Source of the DNA: a virus
Strand: one strand, 5' to 3'
Virus record (IMG/VR): IMGVR_UViG_3300028840_003168
Length of the DNA: 64,000 nt
A program made the translations under genes and the position numbers. Shown one piece after another: positions 4,214 through 40,404 of this stretch (the first letter of the stretch is position 1; each line of letters opens with the position of its first letter). The notes under the pieces were generated by a model. The model was not told the origin of the DNA. It was given only the letters and a program-made list of their open reading frames with translations, and did no database searches.

Positions 4214-4666
4214 ATGGTTGAGGACGGCTACAGAGAGCCGTGGGTAACAGATGTATGGTGCAGTAATTGTGGTACTGAGTTGAGGGTTACGAAAGAGGTT
4301 TGGATAGACTCATATCAGTATCGCTATTCGCTTAGGTGTGGAAGGTGTGGTGGTGTGGCTGAGGGGTCGGGGCTGGCCGTGAAAGCGCATGTGCCATTCT
4401 GGAAGGAGCCCAATTGGCGAGATAGGCATGCAGCACCCGAGGTGCTGGTGGTTCGCGGGAGAGCTAAGGTAACGATACCTGAAGAGAAGTTAAAAGGAGC
4501 GAAGCGAGATGGAGATCATAGGAAGGAAGTTCGGAGAAGTGTGGGCGCTCGACGAGGGCCTGATGGACGTGGCAGAGGGCCTGGTAGCCGAATATACGGA
4601 AGGTCTGGGTCACATCGACCTAGAGCGCGTCGTGTTCGTAAGACAGAGAGGTCTGAAGACAGCTAA
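4214..4666 (+). CDS. Hypothetical zinc-ribbon protein (C-terminus overlaps the next gene)
   Basis: CSNC...CGRC pairs; abuts the dnaX stop. Confidence 0.55.
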   Translation: MVEDGYREPWVTDVWCSNCGTELRVTKEVWIDSYQYRYSLRCGRCGGVAEGSGLAVKAHVPFWKEPNWRDRHAAPEVLVVRGRAKVTIPEEKLKGAKRDGDHRKEVRRSVGARRGPDGRGRGPGSRIYGRSGSHRPRARRVRKTERSEDS

Positions 4667-5033
4667 ATGGGCCGGTAAGTGCTTTTATGTGAAGGAGCCC
4701 CATACCATCCTTTCTCAGTACACTTTGAGATGGATGCAGAAACGAGGTTTAGAGGGTGCGGAGAGGTTTGAGGAGATGTTGGACAATGATGTTCTGGATA
4801 TCCGGTATATCATTGCGTTGAATGATGATGTGGTTCCTCTGATGGTGGGTCCAGCGTCTTTAGAGCTGGTTGAGAAGGCAATCCTGCACCACGAACTCAA
4901 ACATATAAAGACTGAGATGGACGGCATCGAGGAACATGATGCCAAGGATTTCAAGTCTGTTCTCCACATCTATGGTGTTTTCTGGGACTCGGGGAACTTT
5001 AATACTGGTGTTTCCGATGAGGAGACAAGTTGA
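4509..5033 (+). CDS. Putative phage metallopeptidase
   Basis: HELKH (HExxH) followed by HDAKDF..VLHIYG, typical of the phage metallopeptidase family. Confidence 0.75.
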   Translation: MEIIGRKFGEVWALDEGLMDVAEGLVAEYTEGLGHIDLERVVFVRQRGLKTAKWAGKCFYVKEPHTILSQYTLRWMQKRGLEGAERFEEMLDNDVLDIRYIIALNDDVVPLMVGPASLELVEKAILHHELKHIKTEMDGIEEHDAKDFKSVLHIYGVFWDSGNFNTGVSDEETS

Positions 5034-12875: not shown

Positions 12876-13322
12876 ATGGGTAAGAAGGAAATCAGGTTTG
12901 TGGTCAAAGGTAAGCCATGGGTACAGAAGAACAACCTTCAGATCCGAAAGCGAAAGTTAAAGGGAAAATGGGTACCTTTCATCGACCATTCCGACAAGCT
13001 AAAGAGTATCCGGGACCAGATAGCCATCGAGATGTACTCGCAATATCACCGACAAGGCCTAACCAAACCTATCGATTACCCAATCGAAGTGGAGTTCATA
13101 TTCTACTGCAAGCGCCAGTGGGAACCCGACCTGGACAACCTGCCGCAGATATGGCTGGACGCGGCCCAGGGGGTCAAGGCCAAGGGCGGATTGAAAATAG
13201 CAACCATTCTGACCGACGACAAGTTGGTCAGGAAAGAAACCAGCGAGAAAATCATGGAAGGAGATCCCCGTTATGACGGAGAACCAAGAACCGAAATCAC
13301 CATCCGAAGATACACCTTCTGA
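12876..13322 (+). CDS. rusA: RusA-family Holliday junction resolvase
   Basis: PDLDNL...LDAAQG...DDKLV, C-terminal PRTEITI. Confidence 0.8.
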   Translation: MGKKEIRFVVKGKPWVQKNNLQIRKRKLKGKWVPFIDHSDKLKSIRDQIAIEMYSQYHRQGLTKPIDYPIEVEFIFYCKRQWEPDLDNLPQIWLDAAQGVKAKGGLKIATILTDDKLVRKETSEKIMEGDPRYDGEPRTEITIRRYTF

Positions 13323-15620: not shown

Positions 15621-16472
15621 ATGAATAGAACAGCCAGAAAACAGAGACTTGCCCGTGCCAAACGCAGGGCTCATCATTTGTGGAAAGGGGCTGAGGAAGA
15701 CGGCAGGCCGGTTATTAAACGAGCGCGGCCTGAAGAGGAATTTGAAATGTCTATGGAAGCAGGACGTGGGAAGCGTGGTCGCAGGACTGCCGGTCGGAAC
15801 GAGGTGTCGGATCTGAATGCCGTATACTGGGGTCTGTTCGGGGCTTCCTTGGTGGACAGCAAAACCCTTTCGAGCGATATCCCTCGTTCGGTAGCGAATC
15901 AGTTCAATCGGACTGCTCGTCGGAATGCTGGCAACTTGCCGAGGGTTCTTGGATGGTCGAAGCTCGGTACCGCGTTCGCTACCGCGGACATTGCTGGTAT
16001 TCGTAAAGACATCTCTTTCGGGATGCAGACCAGGTTGGCATCCAAGTATTTCAACGTGCCCTTTCTCGCTGCCGCAGACATAGTCTACGACATGGAAGGT
16101 GTGGACCACCGTCAGGTCAAGCAGGCTATCGACATGATCCGTGAGGGCAGGCGCCGAGAGGCGGTTAACCGGTATGGCGACTTGGCCATGGAGCTTTCCC
16201 GCATCTACACCAAGTACAAGGATGCCAAGAACCGCAAACTGGCTATCGACCGATCCGCTAAGGAATATTGGGAGTCGTACCTGGGTCCTTTCGGCCAGGA
16301 GATGGTCCGCGAGATCAAGAAGCGTGTTCGTGCTGACCTCGCCAAGGCCTGGATGCGGAAGCACGGTGTTGACGATGCCGCTGCGGAGTACTGGGCCAGC
16401 TACTACGGGGAATACGGTGAGAAGTGGGTCTCCGTGGTCCCGAAGATGATCTCTCCCAAGAGTGACGATTAA
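15621..16472 (+). CDS. Hypothetical basic protein with two AxEYWxSYxGxxG repeats
   Basis: AKEYWESYLGPFGQ and AAEYWASYYGEYGE; SD AGGTGG. Confidence 0.75.
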   Translation: MNRTARKQRLARAKRRAHHLWKGAEEDGRPVIKRARPEEEFEMSMEAGRGKRGRRTAGRNEVSDLNAVYWGLFGASLVDSKTLSSDIPRSVANQFNRTARRNAGNLPRVLGWSKLGTAFATADIAGIRKDISFGMQTRLASKYFNVPFLAAADIVYDMEGVDHRQVKQAIDMIREGRRREAVNRYGDLAMELSRIYTKYKDAKNRKLAIDRSAKEYWESYLGPFGQEMVREIKKRVRADLAKAWMRKHGVDDAAAEYWASYYGEYGEKWVSVVPKMISPKSDD

Positions 16473-16721: not shown

Positions 16722-16800
16722 AAAAATCGAGACAGCTTTAAAGATCACCACTCGACGGTGGTATATTAAACTTTGAAAAACACTTGAAAGGGCTAGAAAT

Positions 16801-17412
16801 ATGCGAAACGTGAAACAAGACCTAGCAAACGCTTCTGGTAAAGTTGTGAGTGATATTGGTGGTGGCCGTTTAGCTGCCATGTACGCGCAGAATGCTGCTG
16901 CGCGTAGAGCGTATGACCGTGGGAACGAAGGACGCACCCATGACGACCGTGTTGTTCTGGAGAAGCTCCGTGCCATGGTAGAGCGTGGCATCGAGGAATC
17001 CGACAAGAAAGCTGTCAGCGGGAGCCTCCCGGTGAACTCGGTGTTCAATGCGCTTCAGATAGTTAATGAGAACAAAGAGATCAATCGGGACGTTGGTCTC
17101 AAGGCTTTGAAAGGTCACCTGGAAGCCAAGTGGAAACGTGACCGTACAGCCAGTATCTCTGCCGACGACTACAACCAGATTCGAGAGACGTATACGAGAA
17201 ATTATCCCCGTTCAGTGGTTGGCTCTGTGATTGATGAGATCGGACAGCAGGGTTACGTGACCCTTCCGTTATCGGATCTCATGCATATTGCCAGTAAGAT
17301 TCGTACCCAAGGGGATTTCGATAGGCTGATGAGGCGGCACGGGCTTCATACCAATCAGCTGCACCATAGAAAAGCCCGGAACTTCATCCTTTCGGTTGTC
17401 AACGGACGATAG
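16801..17412 (+). CDS. Hypothetical protein
   Basis: 203 aa ORF downstream of TGGTATATT (16759-16767). Confidence 0.7.
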   Translation: MRNVKQDLANASGKVVSDIGGGRLAAMYAQNAAARRAYDRGNEGRTHDDRVVLEKLRAMVERGIEESDKKAVSGSLPVNSVFNALQIVNENKEINRDVGLKALKGHLEAKWKRDRTASISADDYNQIRETYTRNYPRSVVGSVIDEIGQQGYVTLPLSDLMHIASKIRTQGDFDRLMRRHGLHTNQLHHRKARNFILSVVNGR

Positions 17413-17434: not shown

Positions 17435-20400
17435 ATGCCTAAGAATAAATCTATGCGAAATGGTCGTTTCACTCCGAGTTCAGTGGTCAATCGTATCCTT
17501 GATGGCAAGACGGTGACCGCGAATGGTTGGTCCATCGGCATTGACAACAATGACAAGGTGGTGACCTGGCCACCCCGCGGCGATGGGTTCATGACCACCA
17601 TGGCTAACATCGACAAGGCGGCGAAGGACTTCTGCAAGCAGGCAGAGATGCCCATGCCCAAGCCCTACACAGAGCCTGGAGATGCTGTGAGTGTCCCGAA
17701 GAGTCCCGGCCCTGACAGCGATTCCAAGAACATCTCCACCCCGAAGAATTACGCGGACGGCTCCGAGAGTTCCATCAGCGTTCCCAAGAGTCCCGGCAAG
17801 GACACTGAGACCGATCACTTCACCAGTCCTGCGGTGAATGAGGGCGTAGCTCCGAAGGGACCAATGACCGACACCAGCCTGGGCAGCGATTCAGATTCCA
17901 GCGAGTCAGGTATGGGTAAGGATATCAAGCAGACTCCTGACGGGGTGAAGGATGCTCGTCGGAGGCAGGCTGCGTTCATGGAGCCTATGGTGTGGGAGAG
18001 TGACTTTTACGCTATCGATGGTGGTATGGGTACGACTTTTGTAGAAGTTGATGTTGTGGGTGATATCCCTGTTACCGATTTAGAAGCCTTTGGAGACTAC
18101 TATGAGGGCGGTTTTGAGGGGATTGAGGAAGTTGAAAAGGTGCATGGGTGGGGATCTCAGATGTCGGCTCCTGGGTATATGGATCAGACTGATCTTAGTG
18201 TTTATGATACCAAGGAAGAAGCTATTGAGGCTCTGTTTGAGTACTACATGACAGATATGGGTGAGTTGGATGAGCAGTACGAAGAGTATCGTGACGAGTA
18301 CGAGAAGTATTACCTCAAAGGCGAGAAAGAAGCCCGTCGCAAACCCGCCCGAAGACGCCCTGCTCGACGGAGGGCTCAGGGAGATGATTGGTCCGACGAA
18401 CAGCACCAGGTTTGGGATGCGGTCGAACACGCGCTAGAGCAGTTGAACGCAGCTGAGTATGATCGTCAACGGGGTAAAGGTAAGAAGCCCTTGAAACAGT
18501 TCCATCCGAGTCCTGAAGGTGAGTTTTTGGAGGATCTTCGTCAGCAGTACATGCGAGGTGAGGTAGACGCTGAGACCGTAATGGCTACTTTGGCTAACCC
18601 TGAGCTTTGGGAAGCTCGATTTGGTGCGGCTCAAAAAAGAGCAAAAATCATCGACACCTTCTCCCAGGAACCTGATGGGAAAGAAATCTACGCCAACCTC
18701 ACGATGGCCCGACCGTCCGAAGCACTCCTGAAAGACATCGCGGACCCAGACAAATGGCTGGCCACCCAGACCATTCGTGCCATGGAGGAAGATGTAGAAG
18801 CTGGGTGTGGTGGCGGTCCTGGCAAGAAACGCAAAAAAGAGGAAGCCGAAGCTGAGATGGAAGCTGGCTGTGGTCCTCCTGAGAAGAAATCCTTTCGTAG
18901 GAAAGGTCAGTCCGATGATTACGATGTGTACCTGAAAGATGAGATTCAGGGTGAGTGGCTCTCGGGAGACAAGGACAAGGCTCTGGAGATGCTTGCGGGA
19001 GCCGATGATTGGATGACTCTTTTTAACGCGATACACCAGGGCTTGAAGTTCGCTACCCCGCAGGAGGGTACTGACTGGCACTCTGCCGTGCGCCAGTACA
19101 TGGAGTCTATCGGTAGGGACATGACTGCTCGACGCAGACCGCGCCGGTCGGTTCGCAAGAGGGGTCAGGATGAAGAAAACGGTGAGTATCCGATAGACCT
19201 GTATCTGGTGGTGTCTGACATTACAGAGTACATCAGTGGTCAACCTGAAGGAATAAATGTCACGGGTGCCTATGAGGTGCATTTAGTGGACGCTGCCGAA
19301 CAGACCCATCTCGCGGAAATGACCCCTTCATACTACGGACGTTTTGTCGGGTTACAGGCAACCGTTGATGACTATGGTGCGCTTTCGGAGGAACAGGCAG
19401 AGGCTCTGAACGACTATGAAATTGAGTTGTCAAACTATACTGAGTCTGGTGACTATTTCCGTGAGGCGGATATCAAGTCTGGTGTTCCTTACGACAAGGC
19501 GACGGTCTCTGGCAAAGAGGAACGTGACGAGTACATAGAGGATACGGTCGAATACCTGCAAGGTAACACTGCTGATTGGGAAAACGCCATTGATGAGGTT
19601 GCTCGTAAGAAGACTTCCAAAACCCGCCGATCCTACGAAGAACCCGGCGCAGATCGCAACCTGGACGTACCCGATGAGTTCATTGCGATGGAACCCCCCA
19701 AGACTCCCAAGGACAAGGAAGCCCGTCGCCGCAGACGCTCCCAGGATGAGGGCGGTGTCTACACCTTCGACCAGCTCGACGAGAAGGCCAAGGAAAAAGC
19801 CCTTTACTGGTTTTTGGAAGATGCTGATGTCTTTGAGTGGGAGGCTGAATACGTCATCGACGACGCCAAGGAAAATGCCCCTGCCGGTTTTCAGATAGAT
19901 GAGATTTTCTACAGCGGTTTTTCGTCGCAAGGCGATGGTGCTTCCTGGACAGGTTGGGTGGATCTCGCAGAGTGGGCCAAGGCCACTAATCAGGACGAGG
20001 GCATTATCAGACTCGTTGAGAGTGAGGAGATTGAGTCCTCTGCCAAAGTTACACAGGACGGGCGTTACTCTCATGAAAACACTATGGATGTCGAGGTTGT
20101 CATAGACCGTTATGAAGCTGATGAGGCTTCTGGCATGAGCGGAGACGAAATCGAGGCCAATGCCGACCAGTTACAGGAGGCTGTGCTGGATGCAGTAAAG
20201 GACTATGCCAGAGAGATCTATAGCAGGTTGGAGCAGGGCTACGACCATGTCTATAGCGAAGAGAACCTGAGCTACCTGGCTGAGGCGAATGAATGGGTGT
20301 TCAACAAGGACGGTACCTTTGCTTGGGACAAGAGCTACGATGACCTGATCACCCATCCTGATCAGATGAAGCTTCCTGGGGTAAAGGGCAAACGCAGACG

Positions 20401-22108
20401 TTCCTTTCGACGAAATGCTGGCCTATATGAAGACATTATGGATGCCGGTATTGAGACCGACAACCATGAGTCGGACCTCTATTTTCCTGTAACTCCTGAA
20501 TCAACTGAAATCCTGAAGAAGTACCCAATGAATGAAAAAAACTCTCAGACGTTCATAGATAATATCAGTGGTGATGAATGGTATGATGTTCCCTTTGCGT
20601 TTCCAGGAGTTAGGGGTAATAGAAAACGCCAAGCAGGCCCCAAACTCCGCGAGAAGTGGAATGACGGTGGTGATTACTCCAGGGATCTGGAAGCCGAGTC
20701 TGCCGAGGAGCTCTACAACCTGACCATGGCCTTTGGCGGTGAAGAGGTTGACTGGCCCGATACTACGGCTCAACCTGCCATGCCCGAGCAGGCACCTCCT
20801 GCTGAGGCACCTCCGGTCGGTGGCGTTGCCGCCGAAGAGGATATGTCCGAGGTAATGGCCAGCAGCAAGCTTGCCGAGTTCTCAGACATTGAGGCCGTGG
20901 ACGATGAGGCCAAGAGCTACTACGAGAGTTACTTTGGCGAGTACGGCAAACAACTGGTCAAGGACGATCCTCCTGGAAAGAAAGACAAGAAGGCCCCCAA
21001 GGACGGCAAACCTGAACTGGGCAAGCCAGAGAATAAGAAGGATAAGAAAAAGTCGAGGCTGGTTCGTCATAGGAAACCTGCTCGTCGGCACCCTCGTCGG
21101 AGGGCTCAGGACAAGAAGAACGGGCCTCGTTTTTTCGAGGAAGAAGAGGATCTATACCGCTGCCCCAATTGTGGGCAGGAGGAATGGACTACGGAGAGTT
21201 TTTTGGACAAGGGTCCGAAATTTGAAAAGTGTCCTAATTGCAGTGAGGGGATGGAGAGAGTAACCAGGGGACGGAGAACCCCTCGTCGGAGAGGCCAAGC
21301 CGCCCCCGCGGCACCGGCCCCCAAACAACCCGCAGCTCCTGCGGCACCCGCTGCACCAGCAGCGCCTGCGGCGGCACCTGCCGCCCCCGCGCCAGCACCT
21401 GCACAACCTGCTGACCCCGGTGCAGGAACGCCCCCCACGGGCAAGCCAGCAGCTCCTGGTGAGAAACTGGCACCCGGAGCAGGCGATGCCGGTATCCAGG
21501 CACTCGGATGGACTCCTGAGGACATCCAGACGATGACCGATGAGCAGAAGCAGGGCCTCCTGCAACTCAAGCTCATGAAACCCGGCGCACAGATACCTCA
21601 ACCTCCGGGAACACAACCTCCTGGGAAGCCCGAAGGTAAGCCTGGGGTACCGCCGAAAGCACCCGCGGGGCCTGCGGGTCCAGCAGGACCTCCCGGACCT
21701 GGAGAAGCGGCTCCTGGCGCACAGCCAGCGCAACCTGCACCGCAGGAGAAAGTTCAACCTGTAGTGGGTGCGATCAGCAAGATGCTGGCCCAGGTGGACC
21801 CCACGGCGGCTCCCGTGGACCCTACCATGGCCGGGGCACCCGCAGAGGCAGCCCCGGCACCCGCAGAGGCAGCCCCGGCACCCGCAGTAGGCGGTGAGCC
21901 GATTCTCTCTCCTGAGGAACAAGCATTTGCTATCCTTAGGGAGGTTCAATCGCAGGACATGAGCGCCATCGATCCGAAGCAATTGGTATCCGCTAAGAGC
22001 CAGGAGCTGATCAGGCGGCTTCAGACTGAAATAGGTATGACCGTTCAAGAGGCCGAGAAACTGTTCGGCGTATCAAAGAGCAAGGGCTTCGCAAGCCTGT
22101 TTTCATAG
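17435..22108 (+). CDS. Acidic modular polyprotein 1 (putative processed virion internal/ejection protein)
   Basis: About 11 Arg-rich linkers (DARRRQA, EARRKPARRRPARRRAQ, FRRKGQ, VRKRGQ, EARRRRRSQ, FRRNAG, RKRQAG, PRRRAQ, PRRRGQ) between acidic modules; Pro/Ala-rich C-terminus; ATG 17435 after AAGGAAG. Confidence 0.8.
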   Translation: MPKNKSMRNGRFTPSSVVNRILDGKTVTANGWSIGIDNNDKVVTWPPRGDGFMTTMANIDKAAKDFCKQAEMPMPKPYTEPGDAVSVPKSPGPDSDSKNISTPKNYADGSESSISVPKSPGKDTETDHFTSPAVNEGVAPKGPMTDTSLGSDSDSSESGMGKDIKQTPDGVKDARRRQAAFMEPMVWESDFYAIDGGMGTTFVEVDVVGDIPVTDLEAFGDYYEGGFEGIEEVEKVHGWGSQMSAPGYMDQTDLSVYDTKEEAIEALFEYYMTDMGELDEQYEEYRDEYEKYYLKGEKEARRKPARRRPARRRAQGDDWSDEQHQVWDAVEHALEQLNAAEYDRQRGKGKKPLKQFHPSPEGEFLEDLRQQYMRGEVDAETVMATLANPELWEARFGAAQKRAKIIDTFSQEPDGKEIYANLTMARPSEALLKDIADPDKWLATQTIRAMEEDVEAGCGGGPGKKRKKEEAEAEMEAGCGPPEKKSFRRKGQSDDYDVYLKDEIQGEWLSGDKDKALEMLAGADDWMTLFNAIHQGLKFATPQEGTDWHSAVRQYMESIGRDMTARRRPRRSVRKRGQDEENGEYPIDLYLVVSDITEYISGQPEGINVTGAYEVHLVDAAEQTHLAEMTPSYYGRFVGLQATVDDYGALSEEQAEALNDYEIELSNYTESGDYFREADIKSGVPYDKATVSGKEERDEYIEDTVEYLQGNTADWENAIDEVARKKTSKTRRSYEEPGADRNLDVPDEFIAMEPPKTPKDKEARRRRRSQDEGGVYTFDQLDEKAKEKALYWFLEDADVFEWEAEYVIDDAKENAPAGFQIDEIFYSGFSSQGDGASWTGWVDLAEWAKATNQDEGIIRLVESEEIESSAKVTQDGRYSHENTMDVEVVIDRYEADEASGMSGDEIEANADQLQEAVLDAVKDYAREIYSRLEQGYDHVYSEENLSYLAEANEWVFNKDGTFAWDKSYDDLITHPDQMKLPGVKGKRRRSFRRNAGLYEDIMDAGIETDNHESDLYFPVTPESTEILKKYPMNEKNSQTFIDNISGDEWYDVPFAFPGVRGNRKRQAGPKLREKWNDGGDYSRDLEAESAEELYNLTMAFGGEEVDWPDTTAQPAMPEQAPPAEAPPVGGVAAEEDMSEVMASSKLAEFSDIEAVDDEAKSYYESYFGEYGKQLVKDDPPGKKDKKAPKDGKPELGKPENKKDKKKSRLVRHRKPARRHPRRRAQDKKNGPRFFEEEEDLYRCPNCGQEEWTTESFLDKGPKFEKCPNCSEGMERVTRGRRTPRRRGQAAPAAPAPKQPAAPAAPAAPAAPAAAPAAPAPAPAQPADPGAGTPPTGKPAAPGEKLAPGAGDAGIQALGWTPEDIQTMTDEQKQGLLQLKLMKPGAQIPQPPGTQPPGKPEGKPGVPPKAPAGPAGPAGPPGPGEAAPGAQPAQPAPQEKVQPVVGAISKMLAQVDPTAAPVDPTMAGAPAEAAPAPAEAAPAPAVGGEPILSPEEQAFAILREVQSQDMSAIDPKQLVSAKSQELIRRLQTEIGMTVQEAEKLFGVSKSKGFASLFS
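21835..21887 (+). repeat. 21-bp tandem repeat x2.5 (GGCACCCGCAGAGGCAGCCCC; APAEAAP)
   Basis: Perfect tandem copies visible. Confidence 0.9.
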
Positions 22109-22123
22109 ACGAGGAGAATTTCT

Positions 22124-22564
22124 ATGTCAGAAAAATATGTAGCGTATAACCTAACAAAAGGTATCGTGAGCTTCGGGCTGGCGGTAGCCGTGGCACCAGA
22201 GGAGCTTGAAGGTCTTCCCTCGCACCGCAGGCGCAGAACTCTCAAGAGCAACATCATTCAGATCGTGATCCCTTACGGAGAATCGATGGATTTGGTGGAG
22301 AAGACTGGGTTGTCGGCAGACCAGATAAAATCATCTGCCGAGCTGATAAAGCTCATTTCTCGGAATGCTGTTCGGGTTGAGGTCAGCAATGTGAAAGAAG
22401 ATCCGAAGCCCGAGGAAGCTCCCAGGCCGCAGACCAGGACTCTCGATGAGCCGGTGGATGAGAAGGTCCAGGAGGACGCCCCTGAAGAGGAGGCTGATTC
22501 TGAGGGCAAGAAGGCTTCCAAGAAGTCGGACAAGAAGTCCAAGAAGTCTAAAAAGAAGGGTTAA
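22124..22564 (+). CDS. Hypothetical protein with Lys-rich C-terminus
   Basis: SD GAGGAG; ends KKASKKSDKKSKKSKKKG. Confidence 0.7.
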   Translation: MSEKYVAYNLTKGIVSFGLAVAVAPEELEGLPSHRRRRTLKSNIIQIVIPYGESMDLVEKTGLSADQIKSSAELIKLISRNAVRVEVSNVKEDPKPEEAPRPQTRTLDEPVDEKVQEDAPEEEADSEGKKASKKSDKKSKKSKKKG

Positions 22565-22570
22565 GCCGCG

Positions 22571-23134
22571 GTGCTAGTAAAATCCCATAGCCTCAGGTTC
22601 TTGGAGGACTATGGGATAGTACGCGGTAAGACTGTTCACCTGTACGAAAATGGCGACGTGACTGTAAAGCAGTGTTCGCCGGTTTCACCCGTTCTACGGG
22701 TCAATGCTTTGTGGCTGAATAGGGACTTGAAAGTGAAGTGTGACGTGGCAGACACCCCGGCGAAAAAGAGACTCGGACTTCAGGATCATTCCGAGCTTTC
22801 AGAGAGCCGTGGTATGTACTTCCCGTATGTGAAGTACTCCAACGTGACCTTCCACCAAGGGTCCGTACCTTTCAGCTTAGACCTTCTTTTTTTAAGAGAT
22901 AATGTGGTGGTGGATGTTGAGGAGCTCACCAAGGTTGGTTCAAGCGACCGGTGGAGCTGCTCGGGGTGTGATGGGGTACTTGAAGTCAATGGTGGCTGGT
23001 GCGCCGACAAACAGGTGTGCCTGGGGGATAAGATAGCGTTGTTCGCGCTTACCCAGCGTGACCTCGATGAGCTGGAAGCTGAACGTAAGGCTGACAGTTT
23101 TTTGTCGATGGTTGCTGATAGGATAGTGGTGTAG
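22571..23134 (+). CDS. DUF192 family protein
   Basis: VADTPAKKRLGL...GMYF...F....VPFSLDLLFL...VLEVNGG. Confidence 0.8.
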   Translation: MLVKSHSLRFLEDYGIVRGKTVHLYENGDVTVKQCSPVSPVLRVNALWLNRDLKVKCDVADTPAKKRLGLQDHSELSESRGMYFPYVKYSNVTFHQGSVPFSLDLLFLRDNVVVDVEELTKVGSSDRWSCSGCDGVLEVNGGWCADKQVCLGDKIALFALTQRDLDELEAERKADSFLSMVADRIVV

Positions 23135-23156
23135 GTTCAAAAAGGAAGATATTGAG

Positions 23157-26100
23157 ATGAACATCAACGAACTGAGAAATAAGGGTCACGTCAAGAACAG
23201 CCCGATCATTAAAGGTCTCAAGCGGCAGCAGCGTCTGGTGCAGGCTAATTTGAATCGTCATGCCCAGCAGCATTCCTTGACGGATATGTTCTCTGCTTTG
23301 AAACCCGGTGCTCGGGAGGATGACCGGCAGCTTCATTCACTGGTAAAGACCGCTGTGAGTGAGACGAACGATCTGCTCAACCAGTTCTACTTTCCTGTGG
23401 CGCCTCAACTGGCCTTCACCAAGGTTAAGAATGTCAAGTACGCCAAGCACGATGACTCCGAGGTGGTGTCCGGTTGCATCATGCTCAATTGCAAGATCGC
23501 TTCGTTGAGTGGTGTGGACGTGGACGCGGACATCCCGGTTCATGTTGAGCGTGGAGAGCTTGTACTGCCTTCAGTGCTGTACCAGGATGGTCGGGAGCAT
23601 GTGATTGCTCAGTCCACTATCGACATGATTACCCAGCGTCATACCTCGTATGCGCTGCCCGAGCTGCGCCAGCAGGGGGAACCTCCCTATGACCTGGAGG
23701 AAGCCAAGATGGCCACCGAGTCCAGGAACGCCATCGGGTACCAGCCCAGGAAACCGATATACCTGGACGAGGTAACACAGAATAACGATTTCAGGGACAA
23801 ACGACCCAGGATCGCCGCCAAAGGCGCTCCACTCGGATTCAAGATAGTCAAGGAGGAGATGGACAAGGCCGAGGCGGATGGTCTCGATACCTTCCCCAGA
23901 CCTATCGACTACATCCTGGCCACCTATGTCAGGCCGATCATGGGTGAGGTGTACATGAGCGCATGGGCGCCGGCCCTCACCAACGGCGGGTACGCGATCA
24001 ACCCCTACGGAGAGAACCGCGGCAGGCCTAAGACGGGGAGTCGTCGGAAAGTTGCGGGTCTGGGAGACAAATTCATCGACAATTTCGGTGACGTTAATTG
24101 GTTGGAGCATGGCGGCAAGCTGCTTTTTGAAGGGGAGTCCGGCCCTTACGTGGTAGTGGTTGATACCTGGCGATTGGATGACGGTCAAGCCGAAGGTGAG
24201 TCCGATCCTGATATGATTTGGGATGTCTATCGTGTGGATATTGAGGACGGTTTCAAGGAAGACGAGAACGGCGATGTCATAGGATCTAATGGTTATACTG
24301 AGTGGTGGTCTAAGCGGGATGAGATGGAAGGCATCGCGTCTACGGTGGGTCAGGATGTTGAGGAGTTCATAGATGACATTACTTCGGAAGACTTGAAAGA
24401 TCGTTTTTTTGCGTATGATACGATTGCAGCTACCTGGGGATGGGAAAATCTCGAAGGAGGGCCTGCTGACCAGTACGACATAGACGACCTTGTTCGGCTC
24501 TTTGAGGGTACTGAGTTAGAGGAAACTGTAAAAGATGTTGCCGAATTTCGGGATTTGGGGCTGGCGCAGAGAGACGAAGAAGCCGAAGATGAGTTCAGTG
24601 ATTATGCCGACGAGGACGACCCGGATGAGGGTTACGATTTCAAGGAAGCCCGTCGCCGCCGAGCTGGAGAACCTTTTGGCACAGACGTAGATTTCTTTGA
24701 ACAGTGGTTTCACGGTGCGGGTTTCTATAGCTTTGGAGACATGATAGAGGGTTACTTCGATTTGAATGACGATGACCTAGTCACTGTTGCTGCTGCGACT
24801 GACGGTGGCAGCATGTCTCCCCCTTATGCCCTTTTGATAGAGCAAGGCGGCAACCCTGATGTGATGATGGACGCTGTTGTAGAGATGCTTGAAGAGAATT
24901 TGCGGCATTTCCGAAGTGATGACATCGATAAGGCTTATCAAGAAGAATTGAAAGAGCGCGGCATTAGGGACTTCGATGACTATGCTGATGACGATGACAT
25001 GGATGAGGAGCGGTGGGACATCCAGTCTGAGATAGACCAACAGTATGCGGGTGCCGAAGGTTTAGAGCTTTTCAAAATCCCACCTCAAGATCTGTTGCGT
25101 ATTATCAAAGGTCATCGGAACTCCGAAGAGTTGCTGGAGCGTATCGGGGTTGAGGGGCTGGACTATGAAAGCGCCGAAGAAGACTTCAGTGAACGAGAAG
25201 CTCGTCGGTATGAAGCGGGATATGGTTCTGAAACTGGTGATTGGGGTGAGCCTCACAAGTTGCATGGTGTAACCTATCTTGAACTCCCAGACGGACGCTG
25301 GGAGGTTCCTGGCAACCAGGGCATGCCTGCTGAATTTTTTGACAGCGAGAGTGACGCTCGGGACTACATTGCCTCGTACAAGGACAATGGCCGAGAAGCC
25401 CGTCGCCGTGCCCAGGTAGAGGTAGACGCCGAAGAAGCCGAGATGATCATCATGAACGATGAGGGCATGTACAACGAGGCCATGTTCATCGTTCGGCAAT
25501 GGAACGGCACCAACATAAAAGACATCACCGCAGACTTCATGGAGTACTTTGGAGATCTCAGCGAGACCATGGATGTGGGTGACTGGGAGGATGTTGCCCG
25601 AGAGATTATTGAGGGGATGGAAGATGACGAAGAACATCCTCCAGGGATGGAACCTGATTCCACCTGGGAGAGCAAGTGGGAGTTGATGCTCAAGGAGGGT
25701 GTGAGTGGTTCTGTGGATATTGAGGTAGAGTACGATTACATGGTGTTCGAGGACGGAATCACGCAGTACTATCCTGATGCGGATTTGGTTGAGAGTGGGG
25801 ACAACTATGATAACCAGATGCTCAAGGCAATAGAAGCCAAGTACCCGGATGCTTATGTGTCGGTGCAGCCTGGAGCGCGTGACGACATTACTGTGACCGT
25901 GAATGTCGATGAGCAAGGAGATGAGTCTGATCAGTTGGAAGATAAGAGACTTACCTGGATGCTGGCCAAAGAGAAAGAGATTCAGTCTGACGTTAGAGAC
26001 ATGATGGAAGAGGGTGTTGAGTCCTGGGACTGGCTTGTGGAAGCTGGTGAGGACGACAATGGCCGGGAGGCCCGTCGCCGCAAGGCCCAACAGGTTAGAC

Positions 26101-28538
26101 TGGATGCGGGTCAGTTCGGGTGGGACTATCTTTTGGTAAATGAAGAGACTGGTGAGGACATCCTTATCCAGACAGATTGGGACTATCCTGGCGTGGCTTC
26201 TTATTTGGGGTGGCAGCATATTTGTCCTGATGGGGAAGCCCATGGTGAGACTGACGGGACGGTTGACTGTCCAGTGTGTGGAGAATCCTCAAGTGACATG
26301 ATTGGGGAAGCAGGAGAGTTCCTGGACGATCACATTGGGGATACCTTTGAAGACCCGGGATATTTCAGCGAGTCCAGAGGGGCCAAACGGAGATGGTTTC
26401 GGCAAGGTCAATCAATGGAGTTAGAGGATCTCCCTGCGTGGCAGACTACACTCCCTGACGAGATCAAGCAGCTATGGTTTGATGGAAATAGAGAAGAAGC
26501 TCTTGACCAGTTGTTCCAGACCGATGGCGGCTATGCTATCTATCAGCAGATACAGGAGGACTGGGGTGATGCGGAGTTTGCGGCTGCTGTGAGTGACCGT
26601 CATTCAAAGAATATGGAAGACCTCAAGCGTAGCCGTAGTTCTGCTCGACGGAGGCGTCTTCGGCAAGGCTCCCGAAGGGCCAATGCCACCTCGTCGATCA
26701 TAAGCAAAATCGACAACGACCCGCGCTCGTACATCGGCGCGAAGAAGCTCATCGACCAGACTGACGACAAGCTGAAATTAGCCGAGAAACTCGAAGCCTA
26801 CTTCACCAAGAGGGATGGAATCTCCACGGACGGCGTGAACTGGGGCAAGGTCGTGGATGCAGTCCATGCAAAGTTCGGTGAGGAAGCCGTGAAGGACAAT
26901 GATGGGAAAGAAGCCCGTCGCAGACGTGCTTTTCACATTCCGATAGAGGAAGTGGAGTTTGATCTTGAGATTATGGAAGACGATGTTCCTGTTCGCGGGA
27001 ATGCCATAGTCTCTGGTGATGATGATCTTGATAAGGAAGTTGAGGATGAGATTCTTGAGCGTCTTGAGACCGGCGATTTGTGGGCCTGGTGTACCGTTAA
27101 GGTCACTGCCGAGTGGGAAGCTGAGGATGGCCGTATTTTTAGCGGCGAGGACTATTTGGGGGGTTGCTCTTACAGGGATGAGGAAGACTTCACGGAGCCT
27201 GGGGGCTACTACGACGATATGAAGGAGCAGGCCTATGCAGAGCTTCTTGCAGAGGCTTCAGGTGCAGATCCGCAACCGATGGACCCTCGCCAGCAGAAGC
27301 TTCCCGGAGTTGATGCCCGTCGCCAAGCCAAGAGCATAAAAGAAAAGCTGGAAGAGTTCCAAGGTGTGGAGATAATCTTCGAGGATACTGGAGATGAGGA
27401 TACCGAATATATTGTCAAAGCACTTCAGGACGCAGGGGTTGATGCCAGTCTGGGTGACTACACTGAAGTGGATGGTGATAGTCTTGCCAATAGTGTGTAC
27501 GCTGAAAACATCATCAAAGATATAGAAGCAATCGTTTTCGGTGATGATGACGAGGAAGAGGAACCTGAGCGTGGAGAGCGTTGGGAAGATCTGAGTGACG
27601 ATGAGAAACGCTGGTACCACGAGGAACAACGTATCATAGACAGAAACAGAGGTCTGGAATCTCGCCGCCATGCCCAGGATGATATGATTCCTCAAGTATG
27701 GGAGGGTTCTTTTTACGCTTTGGATTTTCCTTCCGGGACCGAGTTTATTGATGCCAGCTGGGTGGATGAGTCTCTTTCCGAATTGAAAAATGCTAATTTT
27801 GCTAAGGGAGGTGTCCCTGAAGATGTGCGGGAGGTCCAGGGCTGGGGTGCTCAGTTGGTTTCTCCTGATGGCGTTGAGTACACAGATTTAGAAGTGTTTG
27901 ACACCGAGGATGAAGCTCGGGCGTCTTTGAAGAGGGGAAGAGGGGCTCGTCGCCAGGCCCAGACCTACGAATGGACCAACGACATCACCCGGCAGGCCTA
28001 TGAGGTTCTGAACCGCGACAAGGCCACTGTAGCCGCCGTGGAGGAACTCATGGCTGCTCATGCCGAGGACGCCGACAACACCATCCTAGTAGGCAACCTG
28101 GCACCTCTCCTTGGAAGTGAGATGGATTTCACCGAGGGCAGCTCTCACGAGATTGTCTGGGAAGAGGTCATTGAGAACTTCCAAGGCGGCACCCCCGAGA
28201 CCATGTACGATGAGAGCTACCAGATGGCCGCTTCCCGGCAGGCCATGCCCATGGAAGAGGACTTGGAGATGGACGGACCCCCGATGGAACTCGAAGAGTT
28301 CATCGATGAGGAACCGGCCCCCAAAGAGCCGCGCAAGTGGCCCGGTACCAAAGCCCCCATGGAGAACGGTGATAAAGCGAAGTTCAATGGGCATGACGGT
28401 CCCATCCGCGGGAAGATTGTGGAGATCGATGAGGCGGGAGATACCCTCATCCTGGAGAGCAAGGGGATGCAGTACCGGGTAGTGGTGGATGACGTGGAGG
28501 CTCTCCCGAGTACGATGAACAAGATGTGGAAAGAGTAG
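23157..28538 (+). CDS. Acidic modular polyprotein 2 (putative processed virion internal/ejection protein)
   Basis: About 12 linkers (SRRKVAG, EARRRRAG, EARRYEAG, EARRRAQ, EARRRKAQ, KRRWFRQGQ, SARRRRLRQGSRRANA, EARRRRAF, DARRQAK, ESRRHAQ, GARRQAQ, ASRQAM) between D/E-rich modules. Confidence 0.8.
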   Translation: MNINELRNKGHVKNSPIIKGLKRQQRLVQANLNRHAQQHSLTDMFSALKPGAREDDRQLHSLVKTAVSETNDLLNQFYFPVAPQLAFTKVKNVKYAKHDDSEVVSGCIMLNCKIASLSGVDVDADIPVHVERGELVLPSVLYQDGREHVIAQSTIDMITQRHTSYALPELRQQGEPPYDLEEAKMATESRNAIGYQPRKPIYLDEVTQNNDFRDKRPRIAAKGAPLGFKIVKEEMDKAEADGLDTFPRPIDYILATYVRPIMGEVYMSAWAPALTNGGYAINPYGENRGRPKTGSRRKVAGLGDKFIDNFGDVNWLEHGGKLLFEGESGPYVVVVDTWRLDDGQAEGESDPDMIWDVYRVDIEDGFKEDENGDVIGSNGYTEWWSKRDEMEGIASTVGQDVEEFIDDITSEDLKDRFFAYDTIAATWGWENLEGGPADQYDIDDLVRLFEGTELEETVKDVAEFRDLGLAQRDEEAEDEFSDYADEDDPDEGYDFKEARRRRAGEPFGTDVDFFEQWFHGAGFYSFGDMIEGYFDLNDDDLVTVAAATDGGSMSPPYALLIEQGGNPDVMMDAVVEMLEENLRHFRSDDIDKAYQEELKERGIRDFDDYADDDDMDEERWDIQSEIDQQYAGAEGLELFKIPPQDLLRIIKGHRNSEELLERIGVEGLDYESAEEDFSEREARRYEAGYGSETGDWGEPHKLHGVTYLELPDGRWEVPGNQGMPAEFFDSESDARDYIASYKDNGREARRRAQVEVDAEEAEMIIMNDEGMYNEAMFIVRQWNGTNIKDITADFMEYFGDLSETMDVGDWEDVAREIIEGMEDDEEHPPGMEPDSTWESKWELMLKEGVSGSVDIEVEYDYMVFEDGITQYYPDADLVESGDNYDNQMLKAIEAKYPDAYVSVQPGARDDITVTVNVDEQGDESDQLEDKRLTWMLAKEKEIQSDVRDMMEEGVESWDWLVEAGEDDNGREARRRKAQQVRLDAGQFGWDYLLVNEETGEDILIQTDWDYPGVASYLGWQHICPDGEAHGETDGTVDCPVCGESSSDMIGEAGEFLDDHIGDTFEDPGYFSESRGAKRRWFRQGQSMELEDLPAWQTTLPDEIKQLWFDGNREEALDQLFQTDGGYAIYQQIQEDWGDAEFAAAVSDRHSKNMEDLKRSRSSARRRRLRQGSRRANATSSIISKIDNDPRSYIGAKKLIDQTDDKLKLAEKLEAYFTKRDGISTDGVNWGKVVDAVHAKFGEEAVKDNDGKEARRRRAFHIPIEEVEFDLEIMEDDVPVRGNAIVSGDDDLDKEVEDEILERLETGDLWAWCTVKVTAEWEAEDGRIFSGEDYLGGCSYRDEEDFTEPGGYYDDMKEQAYAELLAEASGADPQPMDPRQQKLPGVDARRQAKSIKEKLEEFQGVEIIFEDTGDEDTEYIVKALQDAGVDASLGDYTEVDGDSLANSVYAENIIKDIEAIVFGDDDEEEEPERGERWEDLSDDEKRWYHEEQRIIDRNRGLESRRHAQDDMIPQVWEGSFYALDFPSGTEFIDASWVDESLSELKNANFAKGGVPEDVREVQGWGAQLVSPDGVEYTDLEVFDTEDEARASLKRGRGARRQAQTYEWTNDITRQAYEVLNRDKATVAAVEELMAAHAEDADNTILVGNLAPLLGSEMDFTEGSSHEIVWEEVIENFQGGTPETMYDESYQMAASRQAMPMEEDLEMDGPPMELEEFIDEEPAPKEPRKWPGTKAPMENGDKAKFNGHDGPIRGKIVEIDEAGDTLILESKGMQYRVVVDDVEALPSTMNKMWKE

Positions 28539-28541
28539 ACC

Positions 28542-30278
28542 ATGGACGAAGGATACACATTCACGCTCCAGGGTTACGACGTAGTTGTGAACGAGACCGA
28601 GAATTCCGAGGTTTTCCATGTTCAGATTCATGAAGGTGGGGCGCCTGTCTATGAGACCGATGTCCCCATCACTTTGGAGGACGAGGAAATTATCCTTGAT
28701 GAGGTAATCGATCACGCGGCCAAGGCTGCGATTGATATGTACGAGTCGGAGAAAGGTACCTTGGGACAAGGTGCTGAACCGCTAGAAATAGAGGCCAAAA
28801 TGAAAAGAGGACAAGCGATAGCTTCCCCAGGATGCTACTGGATGGAGTCGTGCAACTACACCGAATGGCTCATGCAGCTCAAAGGCACCCCCTACGAGCA
28901 GCAGGCCATCGTTCTGCTTGAGGAACTTATCAACCTCCAGGCCCCAGGCGCGACCAACACCGAGCTGGATGCTTTGTATAAGCAGAAAAGCCAGGTGGAG
29001 CATGAGCTGGATCGGCTGAACCTGGAGAGACTCAAGACTGCCGATCCTCCCAAACAGATCGTTGTCATTGAGGCCAACCGTACCCGGCGTGTGAGCTTCT
29101 CCGGGTTAGACTGGGTCGAAGGTTTCCTGGATGCGTTCAAAGACCACAGGCTGGAGCCTCAGGCCATTCTCAAGGTCAAGGAACTGATCGACCTGGAAGC
29201 GGCCATCGACGTGGCCAGCGCCACCGAGAGTGGTACCTGGGACCAGCAGGACGAGGTTCGCCGGCAGATGGACGCACTGCTCATCGAGAAGACCAAGTCC
29301 GAGGTGGACCAGAAGCTCCCCCAGAGCGGCATCGAGGTGGCCCCTGAGATGGCCAACGACATCGCTGACCTGATGGAAGGCGTCTCGATGGACGCTCCCC
29401 TGGAGCCGATGGTGGCTCGTCGCCGGCAGGTTGCTTACGAGGAGTACTACCCCGGTGAACACGGGGAAGGTGCGACAAGCAACTCGATTCTGGATGCCAT
29501 GGCCCGTGCCGTGTATGTGACCAGCTGGTCTAGTGAGTGGGAGTACCTGTGGGAAGACTATGAGGACGAGGTTATCGAAGAAGAAGCTGAAGAACTCGGA
29601 ATCGAAGTTCCCAATTTCATGGGTGCTGAACTCATGTCGATTGCACCGCCCACTGAGAAAGAGGCTCATGACCTTGCCAAGAAAGTGTATGACGAAATCG
29701 AGCGCGATAACAATGTGAACCTCGAAGACTTCATCCCGCCAGGAGAGGATGAGGACTTTGATCAGTTTGAGTTTGGTCACTATCTCATGATGGAGGTGCT
29801 GGGTTCTGGTGTTGCCTGGAGCGATGACCACGAAGACCACGGGTTGAAGCTCCCGTGGGAGGAGGGGGTCCAAGTTGAGGGCCTGACTCCTTTGGTGAAT
29901 GTCTTGTACGAGAAATATGGGGAGGGTCGCGAGGCTTCCAGAAAAGGCTGCCGCAGACCTGTTAGAAAGAGAGCCCAGGATGACAAGAAAGACCCTTTCG
30001 AGGTTGAGGAATTTGGTACGGAACTGGGGAAGGGTCACGGGGACCTGGACCCCGCGGAGGTTCCCGAAGCGACCCGAGTTCCTTTCGGCCCAGGCAACTA
30101 CATAAAGCTCAAGAACGAGGTCAAGGTTCCGTTGTGGGGAGGAGCTTCTCGTACCATACCCAAAGGTACGAAAGGGTTTGTGGACTCTTTGTATGACGGC
30201 CACGGCGACCGTTTCTATATCAGAACTGAAGAAGGCGCTCTGTTCAGCACCGACCGAGATAATTTGGCAAAAGCTTAG
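28542..30278 (+). CDS. Acidic modular polyprotein 3
   Basis: Linkers EAKMKRGQ, EANRTRRVSF, VARRRQVAY, EASRKGCRRPVRKRAQ; internally duplicated helical module. Confidence 0.75.
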   Translation: MDEGYTFTLQGYDVVVNETENSEVFHVQIHEGGAPVYETDVPITLEDEEIILDEVIDHAAKAAIDMYESEKGTLGQGAEPLEIEAKMKRGQAIASPGCYWMESCNYTEWLMQLKGTPYEQQAIVLLEELINLQAPGATNTELDALYKQKSQVEHELDRLNLERLKTADPPKQIVVIEANRTRRVSFSGLDWVEGFLDAFKDHRLEPQAILKVKELIDLEAAIDVASATESGTWDQQDEVRRQMDALLIEKTKSEVDQKLPQSGIEVAPEMANDIADLMEGVSMDAPLEPMVARRRQVAYEEYYPGEHGEGATSNSILDAMARAVYVTSWSSEWEYLWEDYEDEVIEEEAEELGIEVPNFMGAELMSIAPPTEKEAHDLAKKVYDEIERDNNVNLEDFIPPGEDEDFDQFEFGHYLMMEVLGSGVAWSDDHEDHGLKLPWEEGVQVEGLTPLVNVLYEKYGEGREASRKGCRRPVRKRAQDDKKDPFEVEEFGTELGKGHGDLDPAEVPEATRVPFGPGNYIKLKNEVKVPLWGGASRTIPKGTKGFVDSLYDGHGDRFYIRTEEGALFSTDRDNLAKA

Positions 30279-30693: not shown

Positions 30694-30859
30694 AGAGAAG
30701 CGGAGAGCCCAGGATGCTACAGTTCCCATTAAGAAACCCAAGATACAGCCCCCACCTGTTCAGAAGGAACTTTCTGAAGATTTATAGTCCGCTTTAAAAG
30801 TTCCAACGGTATATTAGATATGATGGTTTCGTTAACCCAATACTAGGAGGTGTTCGAGT

Positions 30860-31549: not shown

Positions 31550-31564
31550 TCCTTCTCAAAAAAA

Positions 31565-31607
31565 AGAACCTCGATATATTGACAGGTTCTGAAAAATGTG
31601 CAGAATA
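31565..31607 (+). promoter_or_regulatory. Sigma70-like promoter with palindrome AGAACCT-N12-AGGTTCT across the -35
   Basis: TTGACA at 31579-31584 inside a perfect 7-bp inverted repeat. Confidence 0.65.
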
Positions 31608-37596: not shown

Positions 37597-37866
37597 ATGA
37601 GGAATCGCAGAAACCCACGCTGCTCAAGCCCCGGAGAGAATCGGGCCGGTTCTAAGTTTAAGGCTAAGTTTAATTACAGGAGATCCCAGGACGTGGACGG
37701 GTTCAGGTTCGGTGAAGATGGCTACATGGAAGTAATGGATGCCATCGTGGAGATGGTTGAGAACGGATACGGGGTCGTGGACATCATGCTCAACATCGGT
37801 GAGAGGTTTCCGCGGGAAATGGCAACAAAGGTGCTTGAGGAAGCACGAGCGCAGGGAATCTTATGA
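37597..37866 (+). CDS. Basic-leader acidic protein
   Basis: Basic N-terminus ending YRRSQ, then an acidic domain. Confidence 0.65.
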   Translation: MRNRRNPRCSSPGENRAGSKFKAKFNYRRSQDVDGFRFGEDGYMEVMDAIVEMVENGYGVVDIMLNIGERFPREMATKVLEEARAQGIL

Positions 37867-39537: not shown

Positions 39538-39541
39538 GGAA

Positions 39542-39856
39542 ATGCGTTTAAAAGGATTATCAGAAAAGGGTGTCCAGCAGGTTGCCAGGACGATTAAGGG
39601 ACAGGATACCTATGAGTGGCAGTACGGTACTGAGATAGACCCCCTGGCCACCGCAGTACACAACGATTTGAATGATGCCGAGGCTTATGCCAAGGAGCTT
39701 GTCTCGGATGTTGACGCTATTCTGTATTCAGCTACCTCACCCCATCAGGAAGTGAAGGACTGGGTACATGAAGTTCGTTGGGCCGCTGAAAAAGCACAGG
39801 CTCTCGTTAACCTTTTGGAGATGGTTGCTGATACATTAGAGGAGGGTAGTCAATGA
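39542..39856 (+). CDS. Leader-class A cargo protein 5
   Basis: MRLKGLSEKGVQQVARTIKGQ. Confidence 0.8.
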   Translation: MRLKGLSEKGVQQVARTIKGQDTYEWQYGTEIDPLATAVHNDLNDAEAYAKELVSDVDAILYSATSPHQEVKDWVHEVRWAAEKAQALVNLLEMVADTLEEGSQ

Positions 39857-40329
39857 GACTCAAAGGAATCACAGGACAGGGCATTCAACGGGTTGCCAGG
39901 ACGATTAAGGCTCAGGGTGAAGGGCTTACCATGTTTGACCTGGACACCTTCGCACAGGCCTATGTAGAAGCCATGCTGTGGTCCTCCTCCACCATGGAGG
40001 ATGATGCAGAGATGTTCGGTGAGGAGTTTGCCGAGAACCTGGATGACTTGGTAGGGTTCATTGACATGTCTCCTGAGGCGGTAGCCCAGGTGAAAGAGGA
40101 CTGTGATCAGTTCCAGGAGGAGAATGCGGAACTTCTCGATCAGGTGTCGGAGGAGTTCGGGGTTGGCGACGACCAACACGGCCATGATTTCTGGCTTACT
40201 AGAGCAGGTCATGGTGCTGGGTTCTGGGACCGCGGTTACGGTGACTTGGGGGAGAGGCTGTCGGACGCCGCCCGGAAGTTTGGGCATATCGATCCTTATA
40301 TCGGTGATGACAAGAAAGTCTATTTTTGA
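39853..40329 (+). CDS. Leader-class A cargo protein 6 (GHDFWLTR.GHG.GFWDR family payload)
   Basis: MRLKGITGQGIQRVARTIKAQ; payload motif GHDFWLTRAGHGAGFWDRG. Confidence 0.8.
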   Translation: MRLKGITGQGIQRVARTIKAQGEGLTMFDLDTFAQAYVEAMLWSSSTMEDDAEMFGEEFAENLDDLVGFIDMSPEAVAQVKEDCDQFQEENAELLDQVSEEFGVGDDQHGHDFWLTRAGHGAGFWDRGYGDLGERLSDAARKFGHIDPYIGDDKKVYF

Positions 40330-40335
40330 AAAAAG

Positions 40336-40376
40336 AACCTAAAAATATATCCAGGTTGTCAGATCTCTGGTATACC
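40336..40376 (+). promoter_or_regulatory. Promoter with AACCT-N12-AGGTT palindrome and extended -10 TGgTATACC
   Basis: Same palindrome-to--10 offset as at 50727. Confidence 0.55.
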
Positions 40377-40404
40377 TTCCGTCTGAGTAGGTAAGGAGGT
40401 CAGC

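Follow-up and report, generated by a model that had tools for sequence, protein, structure and literature searches.

In phage T4, the internal proteins IPI-III and Alt carry a capsid targeting sequence that is removed by the prohead protease gp21, which cuts after Glu in [LI]-x-E. The internal-protein cargo of T4 is thought to exit with the DNA and to act against the host. In eukaryotic RNA viruses, the units of a polyprotein are joined by a short conserved site that is served by one viral protease, and sites of the 3C/NIa type have Gln at P1. Here we describe three long genes in a 64,000-nucleotide stretch (IMG/VR record IMGVR_UViG_3300028840_003168; hereafter the window) of an uncultured phage with a genome of about 158 kb. 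Their acidic products, P0001, P0002 and P0003, consist of modules joined by a short basic linker that typically ends in [AG]-Q. The linker motif is enriched in these proteins and conserved across phages, it lies between domains, and the same cargo is linker-embedded in one phage and tagged with an N-terminal leader in another.

Other described systems share some of these traits. In phiKZ (gp175) and SPN3US (gp245), one protease acts on many head proteins, several of them at multiple sites, and long N-terminal propeptides are removed (PMC10052503). Polyvalent proteins are long chains of many unrelated domains, for which packaging or transfer together with the DNA, and possibly processing, has been predicted (Iyer et al. 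2017; PMC5512222). They are defined by known enzymatic or anti-restriction domains, often with MuF, zincin or other anchors; the word "linker" is absent from that paper, and no conserved linker is described there (PMC5512222). In the Dar system of P1, anti-restriction proteins enter the capsid through the head-internal anchors DarA and Hdf, and the head protease processes one of these anchors at its N-terminus (PMC12810830).

The present locus resembles T4 in having a short N-terminal address peptide on unrelated proteins and a conserved short motif at the boundary of tag and cargo. However, T4 tags single proteins, whereas here many domains are chained on carriers by a basic motif ending in [AG]-Q. 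The head protease also differs: it is placed in phrog_18299, and no Pfam family was found for it. In the reading proposed below, one head protease would act on many proteins through a short motif with multiple sites, as in phiKZ and SPN3US. Their motif is A-x-E, though, the removed fragments are discarded propeptides rather than strings of folded unrelated domains, and no recurrent linker joining shuffled modules is described there. Mosaic, reshuffled multidomain chains recall the polyvalent proteins, but the conflict-related domains of the latter (methylase, SNF2, ArdC-N, zincin, MuF, ART) were not detected in P0001, P0002 or P0003. The P1 cargo is made up of separate proteins that are recruited by non-covalent contacts, and there is no sequence relation. 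The Gln-containing site gives a formal resemblance to RNA virus polyproteins; our phage, in contrast, is a tailed phage with double-stranded DNA, no chymotrypsin-like protease was found, and the units are accessory cargo rather than replication machinery. In the literature searched on T4, phiKZ/SPN3US, polyvalent proteins and P1, we found no description of linker-joined cargo polyproteins. New in comparison with the known systems are the different motif, the different protease family and the comparative evidence of interchange between tag and linker.

Linker-joined modules on conserved carriers

The three proteins are rich in Asp and Glu (19% in P0001, 23% in P0002 and 21% in P0003), most neighbouring open reading frames (ORFs) having about 14%, and their isoelectric points are 4.7, 4.3 and 4.4. 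An earlier reading of the letters and translations (the sequence-only reading) had described them as giant acidic ORFs, and this description was accurate except for a slight overcount: it gave more than 25 basic linkers, and our curation gives 23, of which nine are in P0001, 11 in P0002 and three in P0003. The same sequence is contained in the ENA metagenome contig k141_2638559 (157,903 bp), which also supplied 59 kb of upstream sequence.

In the three proteins, the strict pattern [RK][RK]x(0,1)[AGS]Q was present at 12 distinct sites, with 21 matches when overlaps are counted, where residue shuffles gave an expectation of 0.78. It matched 15 times in the other 146 ORFs (123 kb of genome) against 7.3 expected, and several of these 15 matches are the ends of N-terminal leaders. 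Within the window, 16 of the 19 A-R-R tripeptides in ORFs lie in P0001, P0002 and P0003. The recurring Arg-rich linker is thus borne out. All-against-all BLAST gave just two cases of relatedness: P0001 178-300 matched P0002 1505-1591, and P0003 has an internal repeat. The segments between the linkers are mostly unrelated, as had been claimed. The internal repeat is a tandem repeat of about 75-90 residues in P0003 residues 90-253 (28809-29300; BLAST E-value 5e-4).

Across related phages, the linker consensus is [DE]-x-G-[RK]-E-A-[RSK]-[RK]-x(0-2)-[AG]-Q, with G, E, M or N sometimes in place of the final Q. We counted [AG]-Q after at least two basic residues 92 times in 37 carrier proteins from several phages and 14 times in the 146 other ORFs of the phage, two sets of similar total length.

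Comparison with homologues indicates that P0001, P0002, P0003 and the product of the gene at 16801 each represent a conserved carrier family, and that the four families, whose cargo varies, belong to one uncultured phage group. The carriers and their conserved parts are as follows.

16801..17412, + strand: carrier family 4, 203 amino acids, no cargo here; homologues carry C-terminal modules
17435..22108, + strand: P0001, carrier family 1, 1557 amino acids; conserved N-region, variable cargo, conserved Pro/Ala-rich C-region
23157..28538, + strand: P0002, carrier family 2, 1793 amino acids; leader, N-domain, about 14 cargo modules, C-terminal small beta domain
23157..23270, + strand: leader-like N-terminus of P0002; AlphaFold 2 (AF2) helices at residues 1-36, disordered at 35-53 with H-A-Q
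23271..24038, + strand: carrier N-domain of P0002; confident alpha+beta core in the AF2 model, residues 57-162
28332..28535, + strand: C-terminal small domain of P0002; 44-73% identity to P0117, P0177, P0178, P0179 and L010
28542..30278, + strand: P0003, carrier family 3, 578 amino acids, one inserted cargo module by comparison with a 401-residue homologue

The 21 homologues of P0001 (860-1730 amino acids) have both ends in common, and their middle modules differ in number, identity and order. The conserved N-region of this family spans about 175 residues; the first linker, after the N-region, and the last, before the C-region, keep their positions. Homologues of P0002 (P0117, P0176-P0179, L002 15230-17662 and L010 9995-12865; 639-1167 amino acids) share the N-domain and the C-terminal domain and carry different cargo, and the small C-terminal domain lies mid-protein in several of them. 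No full-length homologue of P0002 was present among 5.8 billion proteins. The homologue of P0003 in L002 and L011 has 401 amino acids and is collinear with it except that residues of about 293-480 are missing, a block of about 190 residues that is bordered by linkers in P0003. Homologues of carrier 4 (P0025, P0042, L002 7738-9408 and L010 1605-3974) have one to six linker-joined modules at the C-terminus.

The same modules turn up across all four families, and the sets and orders of modules vary among at least 30 homologues, so that the architecture is mosaic and reshuffled. Three of the four carriers start with a leader-like or long conserved N-terminal region. The sequence-only reading had proposed strings of effectors. 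The multi-module chains stand, but the comparison of homologues replaces simple strings by conserved carriers with acquired cargo, which is sometimes held in a loop of the carrier.

In the C-region of P0001 (21299-22105), we noted a conserved L-Q-A-L-G-W-T block and an L-F-[ESQ] ending in eight sequences (P0001 and seven homologues); this ending may be reminiscent of clamp-binding tails. A basic protein of 283 amino acids (15621-16472) contains two copies of the motif A-[KE]-x-Y-[WY]-x-x-Y-x-G-x-[YF]-G-x-x-[LW]-V, and a conserved P0001-family module (P0001 residues of about 1150-1180) contains one; the motif may be a shared binding peptide.

We compared the ends of homology blocks with the linker positions. 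Of 204 block ends, 118 were located 15 residues or less from a linker or terminus, against about 53 expected. The linkers and the modules with relatives elsewhere are listed below.

17954..17974, + strand: linker A1, first after the N-region; same position in seven homologues read, with mostly unrelated sequence beyond
18332..18379, + strand: linker A2, triple Arg cluster ending in A-Q; resembles the Arg-Pro cluster of a scaffold-like protein
18884..18910, + strand: linker A3
19127..19168, + strand: linker A4
19718..19744, + strand: linker A5
19745..20386, + strand: module A08, phrog_5162 domain (PHROG E-value 1e-26, P0001 residues 771-961)
20387..20422, + strand: linker A6
20618..20635, + strand: linker A7, basic-x-A-G before a conserved P-K-L module; 22 homology-block ends
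21044..21109, + strand: linker A8
21269..21298, + strand: linker A9, ahead of the conserved C-region; position kept in homologues
24039..24059, + strand: linker B1, within the low-confidence tail of the N-domain model
24060..24464, + strand: module B03, leader-tagged in L010 and linker-embedded in P0177 and P0178
24645..24668, + strand: linker B2
25197..25220, + strand: linker B3
25395..25415, + strand: linker B4
26067..26090, + strand: linker B5; 13 homology-block ends
26091..26381, + strand: module B09, contains Cys/His; stand-alone homologues of 105-190 amino acids
26382..26411, + strand: linker B6
26625..26684, + strand: linker B7
26910..26933, + strand: linker B8, low model confidence just ahead of B13; 133 homology-block ends
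26934..27311, + strand: module B13, very large family of small stand-alone proteins
27312..27329, + strand: linker B9, low model confidence after B13
27657..27677, + strand: linker B10
27930..27962, + strand: linker B11
28797..28814, + strand: basic site C1 (P0003 residues 86-91), doubtful as a cargo junction; collinear homologues span the site
29412..29429, + strand: linker C2, upstream border of the inserted module
29430..29939, + strand: module C05, inserted cargo; stand-alone and embedded homologues with 49-59% identity
29940..29978, + strand: linker C3, downstream border of the inserted module

AF2 models were made for the N-domain of P0002 and for module B13 (69 sequences). B13 was predicted as a compact domain with a predicted local distance difference test score (pLDDT) above 95 over residues 1260-1368, and both flanking linkers had low confidence. 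The model of the N-domain has a disordered end tail that contains linker B1. Linkers were therefore outside folds where tested, in agreement with the positions of the homology-block ends.

Modules A08, B09 and B13 have stand-alone homologues. In rV5-like coliphages, and in other phages too, A08 (phrog_5162) is encoded on its own by a gene of roughly 230 codons. Relatives of B09 are also found as the C-terminal cargo of P0025 and in P0020, a protein of the P0001 family. Proteins of the B13 family have 100-190 amino acids; a search with P0002 residues 490-1689 gave 893 representatives at an E-value of 1e-10 or less, and most of the 150 matches listed were B13. Neither linkers inside folded domains nor modules lacking stand-alone relatives, the sequence-level findings named beforehand as speaking against independent modules, were encountered.

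P0001, P0002 and P0003 had no match in Pfam, NCBIfam or PDB sequences, and phrog_5162 was the only PHROG match. For B13, Pfam, PHROG and NCBIfam gave no family, and its comparison with PDB folds stayed at noise level. A relation to the DNA mimics Ocr or ArdA was sought; no Pfam or PDB match was obtained for any module, and the fold comparison, which covered B13 only, gave none above noise. Resemblances of the P0002 N-domain to cystatin/NTF2-like folds (Z score up to 7.6) and to a P1 head chain (Z score 6.0), as well as a dsRBD-like fold resemblance from the fold search, were at noise level and were not used as evidence.

Interchange of leaders and linkers

Shared N-terminal leaders of about 20 residues, which fall into two classes, are found on the products of small acidic ORFs (37863-41649) and on proteins encoded between the head and neck genes. 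Many leaders end with K-[AG]-Q, and the next residue is acidic or small. The leader-like N-terminus of P0002 resembles the second leader class, that of the small proteins at 40698-41649.

In three cases (C05, B03 and the product of ORF 39853), cargo that is leader-tagged in one phage is linker-embedded in another, and the homology begins at the Q. In L002, a separate gene encodes C05 with a leader (9414-9971), and the linker-embedded form of C05 occurs in P0042, P0006 and L010 1605-3974. For B03, the tagged stand-alone version is that of L010 (3971-5032), and the embedded version is found in P0177 and P0178. The third case is the following small protein.

39853..40329, + strand: comparator, small acidic protein with a leader; 44% identity to P0010 450-578 over residues 19-157

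The matching module of P0010, a protein of the P0001 family, has a linker ending in K-K-[AG]-Q on each side, and the alignment starts at the final residues of the leader. In addition, P0179 contains a complete leader, in frame, in the middle of the polyprotein. These cases suggest that the linker behaves as the terminal part of the leader and that both formats carry like cargo. The tagging or chaining of the same cargo, with its junction at the same residue, stands on its own regardless of mechanism.

Head protease and explanations of the linker

The head genes upstream encode a head maturation protease, a scaffold-like protein of 646 amino acids with acidic and basic parts, an Ig-like protein and the major head protein. 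The protease gene (L009 1061-1966), which adjoins the genes of the scaffold-like protein and the major head protein, matched phrog_18299 with an E-value of 4e-30; the sequence-only reading had looked to a prohead protease elsewhere in the genome, and this gene supplies it. No Pfam or PDB sequence match placed the protease in S77, the family of the T4 gp21 type. Members of phrog_18299 are also present in large actinobacterial myoviruses and in Erwinia and Dickeya jumbo phages. A single strict site occurs in the scaffold-like protein, together with an Arg-Pro cluster that closely resembles linker A2. The spacer of this protein contains, in each of the three phages compared, a linker-like element that ends in R-R-A-[QM] or K-R-G-Q and is followed by an acidic residue.

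We tentatively propose, with a little less than even confidence, a T4-like capsid-cargo system that is extended to polyproteins, with the linkers as cleavage sites of the head maturation protease. Leaders and carriers would bring the proteins into the procapsid, where the protease would cut at or beside the [AG]-Q of the linkers. Some 25-30 small proteins would be released and would exit the head with the DNA. Targeting, cleavage, the identity of the acting protease, the exact bond cut and injection are predictions, and an anti-host role of the cargo is inferred from analogy. That the basic part of the linker is a "packaging handle" is conjecture. A wider form of the proposal, which we hold somewhat more tentatively still, is that the phage has a cargo code of its own: the head protease would read a basic stretch plus [AG]-Q, leaders and linkers would be interchangeable, and at least 40 small acidic proteins would be loaded and then released, many of them from the three polyproteins.

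If the proposal is true, one short motif flags dozens of proteins without a known function as delivered at infection, where counter-defence is expected. The virion would deliver an arsenal of effectors, among them a member of a family that has hundreds of stand-alone relatives, and the motif would point directly to candidates for testing against bacterial defence systems, such as the unannotated and very large B13 family. It would also mean that a second, chemically different cleavage code exists beside the Glu-based codes of T4 and phiKZ, and that a tailed phage is capable of a polyprotein strategy with interchangeable tags and linkers. The short tag or linker could then serve to load foreign proteins into capsids.

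Several observations weigh against the proposal. At one conserved junction, Pro directly follows A-G, which is awkward for a cut after the last motif residue and would favour a cut before it. In two relatives of P0002, cargo is held within an N-domain loop for which the AlphaFold prediction is disorder, and cutting there would split the carrier. The carrier genes are located in a replication and recombination region behind a sigma-70-like promoter element, outside the head gene cluster. We looked for a relative of the head protease with characterised specificity and found none. No known anti-defence fold was detected for the modules by Pfam, NCBIfam or PDB sequence, or by fold for B13. The motif had been expected at the maturation sites of capsid and scaffold. 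For the scaffold-like protein, the element in three phages agrees with this, but an R-x-G-Q at the end of the basic arm of the capsid protein, which looked like a maturation site, is not counted as support, since two relatives have G-D-G-T and G-G-G-S there. A motif site at the N-terminus of the protease was likewise not conserved in relatives and was discarded as support.

The strongest competing explanation, which we regard as rather unlikely, is that the chains are of the polyvalent type and remain uncleaved. The Arg-rich peptide would then be a conserved structural or binding spacer, e.g. a short basic helix that balances the charge of the acidic modules or that attaches to nucleic acid or to the acidic tract of the scaffold, and the proteins would act or be packaged whole. 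E, A, R, K and Q of the linker all favour helix, and cargo in a carrier loop matches an insertion domain better than a cut site. Contacts by charge are plausible, as the capsid protein has an Arg-rich arm of 70 residues and the scaffold-like protein has an acidic tract. The virion RNA polymerase of phage N4 and several polyvalent proteins of plasmids are transferred uncut (PMC5512222). However, a spacer or charge handle leaves the best conserved part of the motif, the uncharged [AG]-Q, unexplained, and this is the main argument against it. The [AG]-Q at the ends of leaders and the start of homology at Q between tagged and embedded cargo are likewise unaccounted for, and sequence conservation of flexible spacers across diverged phages is rare.

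It is still less probable that the chains are expression polyproteins of the cytoplasm, from which a host protease or the following phage enzyme frees small early proteins made as three translation units.

4509..5033, + strand: small zincin-type metallopeptidase, 174 amino acids, alternative candidate protease; PF18894 (34.7 bits, cut-off 23.7), H-E-x-x-H

This PF18894 metallopeptidase with its H-E-x-x-H is encoded 12 kb upstream of the carriers, and the position of the carrier genes in the replication region behind a host-type promoter element fits processing in the cytoplasm. Processing by zincin domains has been proposed for polyvalent proteins (PMC5512222). The zincin, though, is a separate gene among DNA-metabolism genes, where another role could apply; it could be a DNA-protein crosslink type protease or the polyprotein protease. 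Moreover, leader-tagged forms of the same cargo are located between the head and neck genes, and the linker-like element of the scaffold-like protein connects the motif with head assembly.

The linkers are also alike as DNA. The 12-mer GAAGCCCGTCGC, which consists of non-preferred codons, occurs five times, always in frame, in the three long carrier genes. CGT serves as the first Arg codon of 14 among 21 linkers (background 27%; p about 2e-4), and the first two Arg codons, CGT followed by CGC or CGG (CGS), are above the codon usage of the genes themselves (each p about 2e-4). The L010 linkers show similar codon sameness inside their own genome. Linkers of L002 mostly use CGG (CGG-CGG), and those of P0117 and P0178 use Lys. 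Since the linker peptide is kept while the codons differ between genomes, selection appears to act on the peptide and its recognition. Within one genome, the sameness would be consistent with linkers having spread through duplication or through recombination at these sites, or with AGG-AGG strings being avoided. That the linker is a DNA-level device, a short repeat providing microhomology for module shuffling whose translation has no role of its own, is highly improbable: the repeated 12-mer, the CGT-CGS bias, its like in L010 and the exact fall of module exchange at linkers are in its favour, but the peptide persists in the CGG-CGG and Lys-based linkers, 9-12 nucleotides is short for homologous recombination, and the codon bias may reflect avoidance of AGG-AGG strings that resemble ribosome-binding sites.

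Genome setting and further observations

Nearly all genes of the phage are on the + strand. We found no near DNA relative in the phage GenBank collection or IMG/VR, and a search of the same two collections with the P0002 protein gave no close relative. Upstream of the three long genes are genes for a family A DNA polymerase, a clamp loader, a RecA-like recombinase and SbcCD, and an SNF2 helicase is encoded downstream. The gene order carrier 4, carrier 1, small protein, DUF192 protein, carrier 2 and carrier 3 is kept in three other contigs. The other features of the block are as follows.

16759..16771, + strand: promoter-like extended -10 element (TGGTATATTA type) in the final sizeable intergenic gap ahead of the carrier block; putative function
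22124..22564, + strand: conserved protein of 146 amino acids without an assigned family; syntenic in L002, L010, L011 and one NCBI assembly
22571..23134, + strand: DUF192 protein (PF02643, E-value 8e-18); always between carrier 1 and carrier 2, in four contigs

We searched for a motif common to the carrier block and the head genes that would indicate timing; two sigma-70-like types were obtained, none pointing to late expression. The TGGTATATTA element also precedes ORFs 30860, 54595 and 61562 (gaps 30694-30859, 54534-54594 and 61515-61561). A -35-like element, TATTGACAGG, is present in the gaps 31550-31597 and 50688-50773, ahead of ORFs 31598 and 50774, and at two further sites 13-14 kb upstream of the window.

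Among the head genes, the major head protein (L009 4722-6023, about 54 kb before the window) has an Arg-rich N-terminal arm of about 70 residues, which is also present in two relatives, and its PHROG match begins only at residue 103. The gene directly after it (L009 6134-6955) encodes a PF14239 (RRXRR) domain. The strict motif K-R-T-A-Q with an acidic run is kept in ORFs of two relatives (L014 23-1471 and L015) that are portal-like by gene order only.

Upstream of the carrier block, 13273-14589 encodes an acidic protein of 438 amino acids with a trigger-factor C-terminal domain (PF05698, E-value 4e-9), which is syntenic in L002. It is conceivable that this protein is a phage-encoded chaperone for the long acidic chains.

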